Below, in pieces: positions 7,309 through 16,787 of a stretch of 27,695 nucleotides of DNA. The notes under the pieces are model-generated. The model saw only the letters and a program-made list of their open reading frames with translations, was not told where the DNA came from and did not search any database. The position numbers and the translations under genes are program-made. The stretch covers positions 128,001-155,695 of the IMG/VR virus record IMGVR_UViG_3300045988_163776, one strand, 5' to 3'. Source of the stretch: a virus. Within the stretch, counting starts at the first letter, position 1, and every line of letters starts with the position of its first letter.

Positions 7309-7381
7309 CATCTTATGGTGCAAAAGGATAGCACACTGTTGTACAGCAGAGATAAAGGTTCGAATCCTTGAAAGATGATCT
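7309..7381 (+). tRNA. tRNA-like element, atypical (anticodon arm not resolvable)
   Basis: Canonical T-arm aaagg-ttcgaat-ccttg and D-arm gtgc/gcac. Acceptor catctta/aaagatg has one mismatch. The anticodon region ctgttgtacagcag does not fold into a 5-bp/7-nt arm. Confidence 0.3.
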
Positions 7382-9491: not shown

Positions 9492-10130
9492 TTGGCATAC
9501 ATTTATAAAATTATAAATGATATAAATTAGAAAATTTATATCGGAAAAACAGAATTTTCAATAGAAAAAAGGTTTAAAGAGCATTGTAAAGATGCTTTTA
9601 AAAAAAGAAATGAAAAAAGACCATTGTATTCTGCTATGAATAAATATGGTGTTGAACATTTTCATATTGAACTAATTGAAGAAACAGATATACCAGAAGA
9701 AAGAGAAATTTATTGGATTGAAAAATATCGTTCTTTTAAAAATGGTTATAATGCTACTTTGGGTGGAGATGGTAAAAAATATATTGATTATGATTTAGTT
9801 ATCTCTACTTATAAAGAACTATTAAGCATTACTGGAACTGCGAAAAAGATTGGTATATCAGAAGATAGTGTAAGCAATATTGTTCATAATCAAAAAGATA
9901 TAACTATATTAAGTGCATCTGAAGTAAATATACTGAAAAATGGGCATATAATTAATCAATATAATAAAAATACAAAAGAATTTATACAATCTTTTCCATC
10001 TATAAAAGCGGCTGCTAGAGCTGTTACAAATAAAGAAAAGATAGGTGGTGAAGCATCTCATATTATGGATGTTTGTAAAGGAAAAAGAAAAAGTGCTTAT
10101 GGTTATTATTGGCAATTTGCAGATAAATAA
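9492..10130 (+). CDS. GIY-YIG family homing endonuclease; one in-frame TAG at 9528
   Basis: From TTG 9492 (aaggag 10 nt upstream) the frame reads AYIYKIINDIN*KIYIGKTEFSIEKRFKEH..., i.e. GIY...YIG plus the catalytic R/E/H spacing, contiguous with track ORF 9624-10130. Sits between two tRNA genes. Confidence 0.6.
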
Positions 10131-10295: not shown

Positions 10296-10370
10296 GGCTC
10301 CATCGTCTAAAAGTAAGGACATCAGTCTCTCAAACTGGAAATGGGATAGCATAATTCTCTGGAGTCACCA
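10296..10370 (+). tRNA. tRNA-Glu(CUC)-like with non-canonical T-loop, CCA encoded
   Basis: Acceptor ggctcca/tggagtc, D-arm gtct/ggac, anticodon arm tcagt-ctCTCaa-actgg, T-arm gggat-agcataa-ttctc (weak), then a cca. Confidence 0.4.
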
Positions 10371-11036: not shown

Positions 11037-11109
11037 TGCGGAGTGATGTAATGGTAGTATTTTAGCTTGATTAAGTTAAAGATTAGTAGTTCAAATTTAC
11101 TCTCCGCAT
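11037..11109 (+). tRNA. tRNA with an 8-nt anticodon loop (ttgattaa); identity unresolved
   Basis: Perfect acceptor tgcggag/ctccgca, U8, D-arm atgt-aatggta-gtat, anticodon stem ttagc/gttaa enclosing 8 nt, variable agatt, canonical T-arm agtag-ttcaaat-ttact. Confidence 0.45.
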
Positions 11110-12940: not shown

Positions 12941-13014
12941 GGGAGTTTAGTGTAATGGTAGCATGCTTGGCTCCAACCCAAGTGGTTAGGGTTCGAATCT
13001 TTAAATTCCTGCCA
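12941..13014 (+). tRNA. tRNA-Trp(CCA), CCA encoded
   Basis: Acceptor gggagtt/aattcct (two G-U pairs), D-arm gtgt-aatggta-gcat, anticodon arm cttgg-ctCCAac-ccaag, T-arm taggg-ttcgaat-cttta, then g cca. Confidence 0.65.
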
Positions 13015-13023
13015 ATAATTTTA

Positions 13024-13052
13024 ATTGATTTTTTAATAAAAATATAATATAA
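13024..13052 (+). promoter_or_regulatory. sigma70-like promoter, TTGATT-N17-TATAAT
   Basis: ttgatt 13024-13029 and tataat 13047-13052. Confidence 0.45.
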
Positions 13053-13082
13053 TATATGTAAAAGACAATAACAGCAATAAGT

Positions 13083-13155
13083 TCGAGAGTAGCTCAGATG
13101 GTTAGAGTGTTATAGTAAAATATAAAGGTCTGCAGTTCAAATCTGCACTTTTGGA
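13083..13155 (+). tRNA. tRNA-like gene with an atypical 6-nt anticodon loop
   Basis: D-arm gctc-agatggtta-gagt, stem ttata/tataa around gtaaaa, canonical T-arm tgcag-ttcaaat-ctgca. Acceptor tcgagag/cttttgg needs three G-U pairs. Confidence 0.3.
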
Positions 13156-13190
13156 GAAAACAACGTTGTCTTGTACATATGGTGTTATTG

Positions 13191-13265
13191 GTGTAATAGT
13201 AGCATAACGCACTGTGACTGCGTAGGCGAGAGGGCAGAACTCTCATTTCACCCCACTAAAAAAGA
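13191..13265 (+). tRNA. tRNA-His(GUG) with G-1, CCA encoded
   Basis: G-1 pairs with C73. D-arm gtgt-aatagta-gcat, anticodon arm acgca-ctGTGac-tgcgt, T-arm gagag-ggcagaa-ctctc (non-canonical loop). Acceptor has two U-U mismatches. Ends c cca. Confidence 0.5.
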
Positions 13266-13282
13266 CGATTACAGCAATTCAT

Positions 13283-13360
13283 TACCATTTAGCTTAATGG
13301 GAAAGAGCGTTAGAGTTTTAATCTAAAGGAGCGGTTCGAATCCGCATATTTAAATCGTCT
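13283..13360 (+). tRNA. tRNA-like element (UUU anticodon arm plus canonical T-arm); acceptor ends unresolved
   Basis: D-arm gctt-aatgggaaa-gagc, anticodon arm ttaga-gtTTTaa-tctaa, T-arm gcgg-ttcgaat-ccgc. The only complementary acceptor-like strands (agacgat 13273-13279 and atcgtct 13364-13370) lie outside with spacers. Confidence 0.3.
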
Positions 13361-13380
13361 TGTGAGTTAAAAAATCTTTA

Positions 13381-13409
13381 TTGATTATTTATAAAAATTA
13401 TTATATAAT
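13381..13409 (+). promoter_or_regulatory. sigma70-like promoter, TTGATT-N17-TATAAT
   Basis: ttgatt 13381-13386 and tataat 13404-13409. Confidence 0.5.
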
Positions 13410-13471
13410 ATATATATAAACAAAAAAGATATATTATTCTATCATTTTAATTAATTAGAGATGTTACATAT

Positions 13472-13549
13472 GGGCTGGTAGCTTATGCGGTCTGTAGCGC
13501 TGGACTGAAAATCCAGAGGGTGAAGGTCCGACACCTTCCCAGCCCACCA
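13472..13549 (+). tRNA. tRNA-Phe(GAA), CCA encoded
   Basis: Acceptor gggctgg/ccagccc, anticodon arm ctgga-ctGAAaa-tccag, T-arm gaagg-tccgaca-ccttc, then a cca. Confidence 0.7.
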
Positions 13550-13578
13550 TCAAAATTAAAAAGAAAGAGGTAATTAAA

Positions 13579-13722
13579 ATGACAAAAGCAGAACTTAAAC
13601 TATTAAAACTTGAAAATCGTTATCGCCACATGGAAACAAGAGGAGGCTCAGAGGCTTCCAGTGGGGTAATGAGAAAAGTAGCAAGACAAATAAGAACTTT
13701 AAAAACTGATATTGAACATTAA
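13579..13722 (+). CDS. small protein, 47 aa
   Basis: aagaaagagg RBS. MTKAELKLLKLENRYRHMETRGGSEASSGVMRKVARQIRTLKTDIEH. TAA at 13720-13722. Confidence 0.4.
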   Translation: MTKAELKLLKLENRYRHMETRGGSEASSGVMRKVARQIRTLKTDIEH

Positions 13723-13931
13723 AAATGAAAAAAAGACACAAAAACTGCAATTAAGGAAAAAACTAGTATGTTAATGGTTCAAGTCCATTTATTACTTTAT
13801 TAGTAATATAGCTCAATTGGCAGAGCAATAGGTTGTGTATATAATTGTGTCTTGTAATATGGAAGGGTGGTTGGTGGTAATAATGAGACGCCATTTCACC
13901 CTTTACAATAAAAAAAGGAGCGATATTTAAT

Positions 13932-14129
13932 ATGAAAGGATATATATGTCCAATTTGTTTAAAAAAATTTGCTACTGAAAGTAGTATTAAAAAGCATAGT
14001 TTAAGCTGTTGGAAAGAATCACATCCTAATCATATAGTAAAACACGCTCCTCAATGTGAAACAAAAAATACAAAAAAGATAAATGATGATATATTAAGTT
14101 TCTTTAATTCTTTTAGTAAAGGAGGATAA
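13932..14129 (+). CDS. small C2H2-type zinc-finger-like protein, 65 aa
   Basis: CPICLKKFATESSIKKH plus a downstream C/H pair. aaaggag RBS. TAA stop. Confidence 0.5.
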   Translation: MKGYICPICLKKFATESSIKKHSLSCWKESHPNHIVKHAPQCETKNTKKINDDILSFFNSFSKGG

Positions 14130-14132
14130 GAT

Positions 14133-14480
14133 ATGATAGTTAAAATTAATACACACCCAATAGTAAAAGAAGTTCATGAAGAATATCATATGAATTGGTG
14201 TGGAAAAATTAAAAACACTTGTCCTAAAATTGTAAATGATAAACCTATATTTATTATAAGAAACTCTAAAAAGAGAATTGAACTTAATACAATAGATATG
14301 GATTTAATTGAAAGAGTAGCTAAGAAAATAACATCTCCTCAAGGAAGAAGTGCAGTAACTACAGATAAAGCTTATATATATCTTCAAGAGGAAAATGATA
14401 AAGAAACTTTAATGGGAATTCTTACACATAATCATATTAAAACTTATAATCAAATGTTTGATGAGTTTGAGTATGAATAA
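14133..14480 (+). CDS. hypothetical protein, 115 aa
   Basis: Intact ORF beginning 3 nt after the upstream stop, with aaaggagga RBS. Confidence 0.55.
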   Translation: MIVKINTHPIVKEVHEEYHMNWCGKIKNTCPKIVNDKPIFIIRNSKKRIELNTIDMDLIERVAKKITSPQGRSAVTTDKAYIYLQEENDKETLMGILTHNHIKTYNQMFDEFEYE

Positions 14481-14483
14481 TCT

Positions 14484-14574
14484 GGAAAGATGTCAGAGTG
14501 GTTTAATGAATCGGTTTGCTAAACCGACGGCGAGTAATACTCGTTCCTGGGTTCGAATCCCAGTCTTTCCTCCA
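14484..14574 (+). tRNA. tRNA-Ser(GCU), class II, CCA encoded
   Basis: Acceptor ggaaaga/tctttcc, anticodon arm tcggt-ttGCTaa-accga, 19-nt variable arm, T-arm ctggg-ttcgaat-cccag, then t cca. Confidence 0.75.
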
Positions 14575-14588
14575 TTAAATATTTATAT

Positions 14589-14676
14589 GGGTGAGTAACG
14601 CGATAAAGTAGACGCTCCGGTCTGTAAAACCGGCTCCTTCGGGATCGAGTGGGTGCGATTCCCTCCTCGCCCACCA
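14589..14676 (+). tRNA. tRNA-Tyr(GUA), class II, CCA encoded
   Basis: Acceptor gggtgag/ctcgccc, anticodon arm ccggt-ctGTAaa-accgg, long variable arm, T-arm gtggg-tgcgatt-ccctc, then a cca. Confidence 0.65.
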
Positions 14677-14763
14677 CTTAGAAAGTTCTTTTTAATATGA
14701 AAGAGCTTCTCGTAGAAACACTTAAATTTCATCAAAGGTGGAATTAAATTCCACCATTTCTAT

Positions 14764-14837
14764 GCACCAATGACCGAGAGGCGAGGTAACCGGCTGCAAC
14801 CCGGTGGACGCAGGTTCAAATCCTGCTTGGTGCTCCA
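14764..14837 (+). tRNA. tRNA-Cys(GCA), CCA encoded
   Basis: Acceptor gcaccaa/ttggtgc, anticodon arm accgg-ctGCAac-ccggt, T-arm gcagg-ttcaaat-cctgc, then t cca. Confidence 0.7.
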
Positions 14838-14842
14838 ATCAT

Positions 14843-14918
14843 GAGGGTGTAGTTCAGTTGGCAGAACACCAGATTTTTAATCTGGGAGTCGAGAGTTCAA
14901 GTCTCTCCACCCTCACCA
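14843..14918 (+). tRNA. tRNA-Lys(UUU), CCA encoded
   Basis: Acceptor gagggtg/caccctc, D-arm gttc-agttggca-gaac, anticodon arm ccaga-ttTTTaa-tctgg, T-arm gagag-ttcaagt-ctctc, then a cca. Confidence 0.8.
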
Positions 14919-15038
14919 TTAAGGAGGAAGATAAATGAAAATTTATACATCATATTTTTATCGAAAATTGGGTTAAAATTGAAAATTATTACTCCTTACT
15001 TTTCATATTATAATGGAGAAAAGGAGTGAAATAATTTT

Positions 15039-15997
15039 ATGGATATAAATTTTTTAAAGGAGATTAAATCTCAGTACCCTGAATTAAACAAGAAAGAAAA
15101 AAATTTTTTATCTTTTGGAGATAAAATACATCATTGGACTATACTATATCGAACTTTTAATACTAAAAGTAATCATATTTAGTATGTTTGCTAGTGTGAT
15201 TGTGGCACAATTATTCCAGTAGCAAAAACAAGTCTTATAAATAATAAAAGTAAAAGTTGTATTCTCTGTAAAGGTCATAGCATTTTAGGTCAAAAATTTG
15301 GAAAATTAACTGTTCTATATAGAATAGATAATGAAAATAATAGAGGATATTGGCATTGTAAATGTGATTGTGGAAATGAGTGTAACGTAAATACATCTAA
15401 TTTAATATCTGGACATACACGCTCATGCGGTTGCTTACATAAAGAGGTTTAGCATAATAGAAGAATAGATTTAACTGGTTAGCGTTTTGGTAAATTAATT
15501 GCTTTATATCCAGTTTTAACTAAAAAAGGTGATAAATAGCCTTATTGGCATTGCAAGTGTGACTGTGGAGTTGAAAAAGATATATAGGCTGGGTGTTTAA
15601 AAGCTGGAGTTGTAAAATCCTGTGGCTGTATAAAATCTCTTGGAGAAGAAAATATTATAAAAGTATTAAAAGAAAATAATATTTCTTTTGAATATTAGTA
15701 TAAATTTTTTGATTTGCCAAAATATACTTTTGATTTTTTTGTAAATAATTAGTATATTATTGAATATGATGGAATTCAACATTTTACAGATAGTAGTGGA
15801 TGGAATAATAAAATAAACGTTCAAAATGTTCATAAAAGAGACTTATTAAAAAATTAGTATTGTTTTATTAATAACATTCCTATTATTAGAATTCCTTATG
15901 ATGTTTCATACAATTTAAATGATTTAATATTAGAAACTACTAATTTTCTTTTAACCCAAGAAAATGAAAATTAGTATTATGAAGGGAGATTTAACTG
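15039..15997 (+). CDS. homing-endonuclease-like protein (tandem Cys-rich YWHCKCDCG motifs plus a PD-(D/E)xK/Vsr-like C-terminal FDFF..IEYDGxQHF domain); about 10 in-frame TAG codons
   Basis: From ATG 15039 one frame runs about 319 codons to TGA 15995-15997, interrupted only by TAG. Product MDINFLKEIKSQYPELNKK...YWHCKCDCGNEC...YWHCKCDCGVEKDI...KYTFDFFVNN*YIIEYDGIQHFTDSSGW. Absent from the ORF track because of the TAGs. Confidence 0.5.
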
Positions 15998-16069
15998 TTG
16001 ACTATATACACTTCATACTTTTATTAGGTTAGATTTTTCCCTCCTAACTTAATACCACTAAGCACTGCA

Positions 16070-16411
16070 ATGAGCGATCCTAAATGGTATCATAATCCAG
16101 AAGAAGTTTACTATGATAATAGAAATGTTTTAATAGGATTGCGGGCAGAGCCTTTTGTTCCTAATGAACGATTAACTGGTTATAATGGAAAAGAATTTTT
16201 AAAGCTTTATGAATGTCAATTAAAAATGTTGGATTTTAATAAAATAATGCAAAGATTTAAAGATTTAGAAAAGCAAATAGGAAAACCTTGTGACTTTGCT
16301 TTAATTTTCCATGAAGCCCCAGATAATCCTTATAGTGAACGAGGTAGTGTGCAAAAGTGGTTCGCAGAAAATGGTTTAGAGATTGAGGAATGGAAAGGAG
16401 AAGAATTATAA
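16070..16411 (+). CDS. hypothetical protein, 113 aa
   Basis: Intact ORF. TAA overlaps the next start (taATGg). Confidence 0.5.
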   Translation: MSDPKWYHNPEEVYYDNRNVLIGLRAEPFVPNERLTGYNGKEFLKLYECQLKMLDFNKIMQRFKDLEKQIGKPCDFALIFHEAPDNPYSERGSVQKWFAENGLEIEEWKGEEL

Positions 16412-16671
16412 TGGAAGATGTAAAAAAGCACCGAATACTTATTAGGCTTGATAAGCTTTCAGAAGTAAAAGATTTTGTTAATATTTGTTCAAAACTTCCA
16501 GCAGGAGCAAAAGTTCAAATAGTAGACGAAACTTCTAACCAAAGAATAAATGCTACTTCACTTTTAGGAGTAATAAGCACAGTAGATTGGAAAGAAACTT
16601 ATGTTGAATCTGCAGAGGATATTTATGATTCAATTAAACAATTTATTCCGGTAACAAACTTAACAAACTAA
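16411..16671 (+). CDS. hypothetical protein, about 86 aa
   Basis: ATG 16411 after aaaggagaag. The track lists 16390, but the RBS fits 16411. TAA stop followed by a hairpin. Confidence 0.5.
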   Translation: MEDVKKHRILIRLDKLSEVKDFVNICSKLPAGAKVQIVDETSNQRINATSLLGVISTVDWKETYVESAEDIYDSIKQFIPVTNLTN

Positions 16672-16680
16672 AATGAAGAG

Positions 16681-16697
16681 CGGATAATCCGCTCAAT
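16681..16697 (+). terminator. hairpin terminator-like element
   Basis: gagcgga-taa-tccgctc. Confidence 0.4.
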
Positions 16698-16699
16698 AT

Positions 16700-16771
16700 G
16701 GTGGACTGGCTCAATGGTAGAGCAACTGTCTTATAAGCAGTAAGTTTAGAGTTCAAATCTCTAGTCCATCT
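16700..16771 (+). tRNA. tRNA-Ile(UAU)-like (reads AUA)
   Basis: Acceptor ggtggac/gtccatc, D-arm gctc-aatggta-gagc, anticodon arm actgt-ctTATaa-gcagt, T-arm tagag-ttcaaat-ctcta. Confidence 0.55.
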
Positions 16772-16787
16772 CTAATGAATATATAAG

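Follow-up and report, generated by a model that had tools for sequence, protein, structure and literature searches.

A probable free-standing homing endonuclease gene, readable only with TAG as glutamine, that interrupts a conserved protein gene and supplies it with a new start in a gut phage

What is a long reading frame, open except for TAG codons, doing beside the transfer RNA (tRNA) genes of a phage, and how did it come to lie there? The question is raised by a stretch of 27,695 nucleotides from the IMG/VR virus record IMGVR_UViG_3300045988_163776 (positions 128,001 to 155,695 of that record), hereafter the window, whose own numbering is used throughout; the phage is about 155 kb long and comes from human-gut metagenomes. 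An earlier reading made from the letters of the window alone (the sequence-only reading) had placed the frame after a tRNA-Lys gene, and this is indeed where it lies, with tRNA-Lys at 14843-14918 on its 5' side. We hold with considerable confidence that it is the free-standing homing endonuclease gene of a phage in which TAG encodes glutamine (Gln), as in genetic code 15. Annotation under the standard code is blind to this gene:

15039-16001, plus strand: putative homing endonuclease gene (P0001), 320 codons, 10 TAG read as Gln, TGA stop

The frame had been described as 319 codons interrupted by about 10 TAGs and nothing else. Translation of 15039-15997 returns just this, with a TAG count of exactly 10 (starting at 15180, 15192, 15450, 15480, 15537, 15585, 15696, 15750, 15855 and 15972), and the actual open reading frame (ORF) is longer by one cysteine (Cys) codon before the TGA at 15999-16001. 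No TAA or TGA precedes this terminal TGA, as against 21 and 46 in the remaining two frames, and the longest TAA/TGA-free frame across 2000 mononucleotide shuffles of the region was 171 codons, with none of the 2000 reaching 320. The ATG is preceded at a distance of 12 nt by an AAGGAG Shine-Dalgarno-like site. TAG makes up 10 of the 15 Gln codons of the ORF (67%) but 19% of those in the window ORFs taken together (40 TAG, 147 CAA and 24 CAG), and the share differs from that in the rest of the window (30/196; Fisher P = 3e-5). At 31 TAG per 1000 codons the density is the highest in the window, as the sequence-only reading had it. The next, 28 per 1000, belongs to a 141-codon ORF at 21800-22225, an uncertain gene whose four Gln-type codons are all TAG.

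The meaning of TAG can be read off from orthologues in phages that use the standard code. Two such proteins (from contigs L007 and L095; 65-68% identical) translate without stops and, at the 10 nuclease TAG sites, show CAA or CAG in 8/10 and 6/10 cases, respectively (binomial P of 4e-9 and 1e-6). Further, a TAG in the neighbouring gene (16025) coincides with a nearly invariant Gln of that gene's family. Since what the homologues show does not depend on the recoding, we regard TAG as Gln in this phage as well supported, on the strength of sequence comparison rather than protein chemistry, and the nuclease gene serves as a clean internal proof of it. TAG at the Gln positions of standard-code homologues is joined by a candidate decoder 0.9 kb downstream of the nuclease gene, completing the picture of code 15:

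16887-16974, plus strand: tRNA(CUA), 88 nt

Its acceptor pairs U1-A72, G2-C71 and G3-C70 and its discriminator G73 are those of the phage's tRNA-Gln(UUG); CCA is not encoded, and its long variable arm is atypical of a tRNA-Gln. The gene apparently forms its own transcription unit, with a strong promoter-like site at 16788-16816 (TTGAAA, 17 nt, TG-TATAAT; 11/12) and a terminator-like hairpin after it at 17089-17111. Several further long ORFs of the window require TAG read-through, while the early-gene-like ORFs at its left have no TAG.

Other readings of the TAGs fare poorly. A gene that is dead, with its TAGs acting as true stops, is hardly credible, and we regard it as already contradicted. 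A standard-code reading yields only short pieces, and a 1-nt deletion is present in two contigs, as might be expected of such a gene; against this stand the complete lack over 320 codons of TAA and TGA, whose conserved presence in the frame the sequence-only reading had named as a ground for refutation, the conservation of the entire ORF with 10/10 TAG across 12 contigs, and the other long, conserved-looking ORFs of the window that likewise need read-through (for instance, one of 810 codons with 9 TAG). It is also very unlikely that TAG is read as another amino acid, be it by a tRNA of the Ser, Leu or Tyr type, or as Glu in a host with the indirect route to Gln-tRNA, should amidation fail. The long variable arm of the tRNA(CUA) is a feature of Ser, Leu and Tyr tRNAs, and ARAGORN leaves this tRNA unassigned under the label Pyl. 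However, none of the 20 residues aligned to the TAG sites in the two standard-code orthologues is Ser, Leu or Tyr, the aligned residues are mostly Gln, the TAG at 16025 sits on the target family's nearly invariant Gln, and the acceptor stem and discriminator match those of the phage's tRNA-Gln(UUG).

How the gene came to its place can be seen by comparing genomes of the same phage species, whose contigs we recovered by exact-sequence look-ups of two neighbouring proteins. One 155.7-kb contig proved identical to the window, and contigs bearing the gene came from at least 13 samples, with copies about 99.5% identical and 10/10 TAG kept. The intact 137-aa gene (P0243 variant) is encoded on at least 24 contigs, ten of which were fetched (L085-L094) and, together with L070, make up the empty-site set. 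The nuclease gene is absent from all ten fetched contigs. The flanking anchors lie 1146 bp apart with the insert and 83 bp apart without it (in nine of the ten; L089 is without the left anchor), from which the insert measures 1063 bp, and all nine anchor-checked contigs have an identical in-frame empty junction. Hence, the nuclease gene is a presence/absence polymorphism at one precise site in collinear genomes. The elements of this site are as follows:

14962-16024, plus strand: inserted cassette, 1063 bp, present or absent as a unit
14921-14961, plus strand: left remnant of the target gene, AAGGAGG and codons 1-9 (ATG AAA ATT TAT ACA TCA TAT TTT TAT)
14979-15005, plus strand: degenerate second copy of the target 5' end, TTG AAA ATT ATT ACT CCT TAC TTT TCA, that is (M)KIITPYFS, within the 77-nt cassette leader
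15998-16411, plus strand: restored target gene, 137 codons, TTG start, codon 10 = TAG (16025-16027)
16004-16024, plus strand: diverged duplicate of target codons 3-9 (IYTSYFY), a copy of 14941-14961

The empty allele has AAGGAGG 2 nt beyond the last tRNA of the cluster and then the target gene, which begins ATG AAA ATT TAT ACA TCA TAT TTT TAT TAG ATT AGA and whose product has the N-terminus MKIYTSYFYQIRFFPP. The cassette thus does not lie between tRNA genes; rather, it interrupts this conserved 137-aa gene after codon 9. The sequence-only reading had proposed to check whether the flanking tRNA genes are contiguous in relatives without the insert; an empty site does exist, but the interrupted unit is a protein gene and not a tRNA pair. 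On the left, the remnant of the target is identical to the start of the intact gene in L085-L094 and, read from 14935, runs into the insert to end at 14976 as MKIYTSYFYRKLG*. On the right, a TTG start overlaps the stop of the nuclease (TGTTGA, 15996-16001), has GGGAG 9 nt upstream and continues as ACT ATA TAC ACT TCA TAC TTT TAT TAG GTT, that is (M)TIYTSYFYQV. The two copies of the IYTSYFY segment differ at 4/21 nt, all synonymous third positions, and it is the left-hand version that the empty alleles carry. Of the cassette, 77 nt precede the nuclease ORF and 23 nt follow its stop. In effect, a mobile gene is shown here repairing the start of the gene that it invades.

The leader holds a trace of what was probably an earlier insertion event: by eye, 18/27 nt of the second copy at 14979-15005 match 14935-14961, and relatives described below have comparable segments (MKIITSYFLY at the matching place in L100/L101, and a second remnant MKFYTSYFL* in L004/L005), so we interpret this copy, with moderate confidence, as a fossil of it. 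The target itself is a conserved protein whose homologues span 96-100% of the 137-aa form and share the N-terminus MKIYTSYFYQxRFFPP, in which S6, Y7, F8, Y9 and R12 are invariant. A likeness to DUF488 found no support in Pfam/NCBIfam searches, and an IMG/VR search with a 113-aa form of it gave no match. In the empty allele (L085, 4987-5050) the AGGAGG of its Shine-Dalgarno has a potential pairing partner, CCCUCC, some 50 nt further on, giving a hairpin no better than that of shuffled sequence (z = -1.07).

The flanks of the cassette add some detail. The sole fixed difference in the right flank, 4 nt from the junction, is G/A at 16028, giving V11 with the insert and I11 in the empty allele. On the left, L072 and L080 are only 87-89% identical in the flank, as against about 99.5% among insert copies. 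The empty site of L070 (5825-5850, corresponding to the window 14961/16025 junction; anchors 82 bp apart) has a T4 instead of a T5 run exactly at the insertion point, which puts the 5' end of the target out of frame in a right-flank haplotype that is otherwise window-like; possible explanations are a repair scar, a resistant allele and a mistake of assembly. An origin of the cassette as an intron or intein was considered and rejected: Rfam shows only tRNAs in the window, and the ORF has its own Shine-Dalgarno and stop.

We then asked what the protein might do. An AlphaFold model built from 60 homologues, over which residue invariance was also scored, has a mean predicted local distance difference test (pLDDT) of 90 and comprises a repeat unit occurring three times followed by an alpha/beta domain:

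15117-15638, plus strand: three tandem Cys-rich repeats, residues about 27-80, 82-135 and 145-200
15639-15998, plus strand: Vsr-like PD-(D/E)xK nuclease domain, residues about 201-320

Each repeat has three beta-strands and a short helix with the pattern C-x-C-x-C-G ... SCGC (CxxC in copy 1), and in repeats 2 and 3 the Cys columns do not vary. The two tandem YWHCKCDCG motifs of the sequence-only reading are both there, but a third, degenerate copy (YVC*CDCG) upstream raises the number of repeats to three. Among the top 120 homologues the repeat occurs in 2-8 copies, in view of which the N-terminus looks like a modular array, and the motif IE[YF]DG..H of the nuclease domain is kept in 109. The array is presumed to be the DNA-recognition module, with putative zinc binding, and is a candidate for a new module of this kind.

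The segment KYTFDFFVNN*YIIEYDGIQHF, previously likened to a PD-(D/E)xK/Vsr-type core, is found in frame, and that likeness now gains support from the model, the Vsr fold that it displays and the invariant acidic and His residues. In a fold comparison, the modelled domain gives values of 9.8 with the Vsr endonuclease (1cw0_A), 9.0 with the catalytic domain of I-Bth0305I (3r3p_B; root-mean-square deviation 2.7 A over 87/98 residues, model comparison) and 6.8 with a DUF559-like protein (3hrl_A). D232, E242, D244, H248, D268, K271 and R284 are invariant in the family and E203 nearly so. The catalytic domain is predicted to fold and to work like the EDxHD, or Vsr-like, homing endonucleases. Database labels offer a mixed picture. 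The PHROGs families matched (phrog_374, in 3 stretches, and phrog_559) are labelled HNH or homing endonuclease; the HNH label was rejected, as there is no Pfam HNH match, the fold is that of Vsr and the PHROG match extends over the Cys repeats. No family was found above threshold in Pfam/NCBIfam for either the nuclease or the target protein, and the Pfam scan showed no NUMOD or helix-turn-helix, in whose stead the model has the three beta-barrel repeats. The nuclease family is large (4971 matches, the closest 99% identical); in deposited phages it has distant relatives only, with at most 39% identity and none covering 80% of the protein.

The same arrangement recurs in other phage lineages:

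L004/L005: nuclease 69% identical, recoded, in a tRNA island, 8 TAG
L100/L101: nuclease 73-74% identical, recoded, in a tRNA island, 14 TAG
L007: nuclease 68% identical, standard code, between the helicase and DNA polymerase III alpha genes, 0 TAG
L095: nuclease 65% identical, standard code, next to the helicase gene, 0 TAG

In all of these the stop of the nuclease overlaps the start of a target homologue (ATGA, TTGA or ATGTTAA). Remnants of the target's 5' end lie upstream, clear in L004/L005 and L100/L101 and, by eye, more degenerate in L007 and L095. Five of the nuclease TAG sites are common to the window and L004. A more distant relative in L097 (48% identical, 4 TAG) is located upstream of the target gene, at a distance of one small ORF. 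Leaving the latter apart, the nuclease is paired with the same target in five phage lineages whose neighbourhoods otherwise differ, which is the behaviour expected of a homing endonuclease. Relatives found in IMG/VR through the AAA ATPase (29-57% identical) are not close enough for an empty-site comparison; in them, members of the nuclease family sit at unrelated places.

Taken together, these observations suggest the following course of events. In a mixed infection, the enzyme would cut the intact allele at or close to the codons for IYTSYFY|Q, with the cut expected within or adjoining ATTTATACATCATATTTTTAT|TAGATTAGA of the empty site. The break would be repaired from the insert-bearing genome; the homology arms would be the 5' remnant (Shine-Dalgarno and 9 codons) on the left and the body of the target gene on the right. 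The insert-bearing allele would itself be immune, because the site is split and its right-hand copy has 4 synonymous changes and I11V. With the new Shine-Dalgarno of the cassette and its TTG start, which overlaps the stop of the nuclease, the target would stay expressible, being translated from the new start and possibly coupled to translation of the nuclease. With 10 of 15 Gln codons being TAG, the nuclease would not be completed without tRNA(CUA), so that its synthesis is probably confined to the late phase of infection and to recoded phages; a role of the TAG load in expression timing is plausible here. Going beyond the assignment as a homing endonuclease, we tentatively entertain, as a possibility that we rate below even, a distinct intron- and intein-free lifestyle inside a coding region, in which a recoded, cleavage-immune replacement start is coupled to the nuclease stop, the old 5' end serves as the upstream arm, the 2-8 barrel repeats are perhaps a modular DNA reader and the TAG load perhaps a late lock. 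In any case, gut metagenomes here supply a natural before/after pair of alleles for the study of homing in uncultured recoded phages.

Several points weigh against this account. Cleavage, the cut site, immunity, homing and the timing of expression are all steps that we infer. The EDxHD composite motif is made up in I-Bth0305I of E170, D196, N208, H213 and D222 (PMC3239194), and E203 with D232, D244, H248 and D268 follows the E-D-x-H-D order in a mapping made by motif only. A profile search of all PDB sequences with E up to 10 returned no match to 3r3p or Vsr. Profile similarity of the nuclease kind, to which the sequence-only reading had looked, is present in that PD-(D/E)xK-type Pfam families match (DUF2726, DUF5889 and DUF559, the last weakly in 5/20 family members with a best E of 1.3e-3), but every one of these matches falls below the curated threshold. 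A sigma-70 scan found no convincing promoter for the nuclease gene. The TAG share is only marginally above that of other TAG-using late genes (10/15 versus 23/68, P = 0.04), and the enrichment could stem from history and not from selection. Finally, L079 and L083 carry a 1-nt deletion in an A6 run (window 15522) that shifts the frame at nuclease codon 162, because of which some copies of the gene may be decaying; the deletion could also be an assembly or homopolymer error.

These points leave room for two alternatives. In one, ordinary recombination through the duplicated 5' ends lets the cassette spread or persist passively, and the protein is a domesticated nuclease or a DNA-binding regulator. 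The flanking repeats alone could support such recombination, nuclease activity is a prediction, and the relatives in deposited phages go by inconsistent names, namely 'regulatory protein', 'AP2 domain protein' and 'restriction enzyme'. We nevertheless consider this improbable: the catalytic-type residues are invariant over 60 homologues, the nuclease is tied to one target in the five lineages, and the insert copies agree to about 99.5%, as against a left-flank divergence of 10-13% among some carriers. The other alternative concerns the TAG codons only, whose enrichment might have no regulatory role and record a long stay in recoded phages or a mutational drift from CAG. As the TAG count of the orthologues (0, 4, 8, 10 or 14) tracks the host genome, with 4, 8 and 14 in recoded phages and none in those of the standard code, history is a live alternative to timing, to which the weak contrast with other late genes also adds. 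On the other hand, the Gln codons of the standard-code orthologues are mostly CAA, two changes away from TAG via CAG; yet TAG reaches 67% in the nuclease as against 19% window-wide, five TAG sites are shared with L004 and other strain-variable endonuclease genes likewise carry TAG. We therefore judge an enrichment devoid of regulatory role to be a serious contender, albeit somewhat on the unlikely side, and far less remote than passive spread. A homing endonuclease remains our preferred interpretation of the gene.

How does such an element compare with what is known? In T4-type phages, free-standing endonucleases of the Seg and Mob types, which are GIY-YIG or HNH enzymes, usually lie between genes, and SegB is located in the T4 tRNA region. 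Like them, the window gene stands alone with its own translation signals, beside tRNA genes, and varies between strains; its enzyme would likewise be expected to cut the allele without it and then be copied in by repair. Unlike them, it lies within a coding region, where it replaces the first nine codons and the start of its target. A parallel for the latter is found in fungal mitochondria, where mobile endonuclease ORFs enter a gene at its 3' end and provide a substitute for the segment that encodes its C-terminus. The cassette is like these in carrying a substitute gene end and leaving the old end as a remnant, but it is their mirror image: what it replaces is the 5' end and start, with the restored gene coupled to the stop of the nuclease. 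The spread of free-standing endonucleases has been termed 'intronless homing' (PMC2988022).

As for the enzymes themselves, the EDxHD (Vsr-like) homing endonucleases include I-Bth0305I, the free-standing Vsr-like genes of 'fractured genes' and phage Hef (PMC3239194, PMC2677866). The window nuclease has no detectable sequence similarity to I-Bth0305I and the EDxHD enzymes; its N-terminus consists of Cys-rich beta-barrel repeats where theirs has NUMOD or helix-turn-helix elements, and its gene is in neither an intron nor an intein and is readable only with TAG as Gln. A recoded endonuclease is known from the 'Agate' phages, in which a group I intron endonuclease is enriched in TGA, and Borges and colleagues proposed that the preference for the reassigned stop delays this enzyme until late infection (bioRxiv 10.1101/2021.08.26.457843). 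The window gene similarly favours the reassigned stop codon; however, the Agate enzyme is intron-encoded with TGA as Trp, while the present one is free-standing with TAG as Gln and has 0-14 TAG among its orthologues. To the proposal that recoded stops hold nucleases back until late infection, it adds a free-standing, TAG-based case. In sum, free-standing endonuclease genes in phage tRNA regions and recoded endonucleases were known already; what is different here is the Cys-repeat array, the replacement of a gene start by a mobile cassette and the dependence on TAG as Gln.

Concerning the phage, its AAA ATPase, the sole replication-type ATPase tested, is 42% identical to those of Enterococcus phages of about 150 kb, and its C1 peptidase carries an SLH domain; these two features point to a putative Gram-positive host. 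A megablast of 13000-18400 against deposited phages gave no match, and the phage has no close deposited relative.

The tRNA island harbours further endonuclease genes. The one that had been counted as the first by the sequence-only reading (9492-10130) is a GIY-YIG enzyme (Pfam E = 1e-10) with NUMOD1 and one in-frame TAG, flanked by tRNA-Glu and tRNA-Leu. Two more are strain-variable (L070 6551-7516 and L076 6666-7412; also L079, L086 and L089): a 219-aa HNH gene, which stands in place of window 16726-16857 and thus also of the 3' part of tRNA-Ile(tat), and a GIY-YIG gene of 248 aa. Four in-frame TAG occur in each of the two, whose C-termini have a helix-turn-helix-like segment in common, LPFTQIG..DNTIRKWC.

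The tRNA content of the island depends on the strain as well. In many relatives tRNA-Lys is followed by 222 bp that hold tRNA-Arg(tct) and tRNA-Ile(tat) (L070 5578-5799; variants also in L072, L080, L082 and L085-L094), a block which is missing at window 14919; tRNA-Tyr is present or absent; and the place ahead of the suppressor is taken by Ile(tat), Thr(tgt) or Arg(tct). In the window there are also odd or weak tRNA-like genes (7309-7378, 10296-10367, 11037-11109, 13082-13156, 13182-13353 and 14589-14673), to one of which ARAGORN gives a 4-base anticodon (gatt) and to another a 2-base one, along with five extra Rfam tRNA matches of 31-41 bits that have no ARAGORN call.
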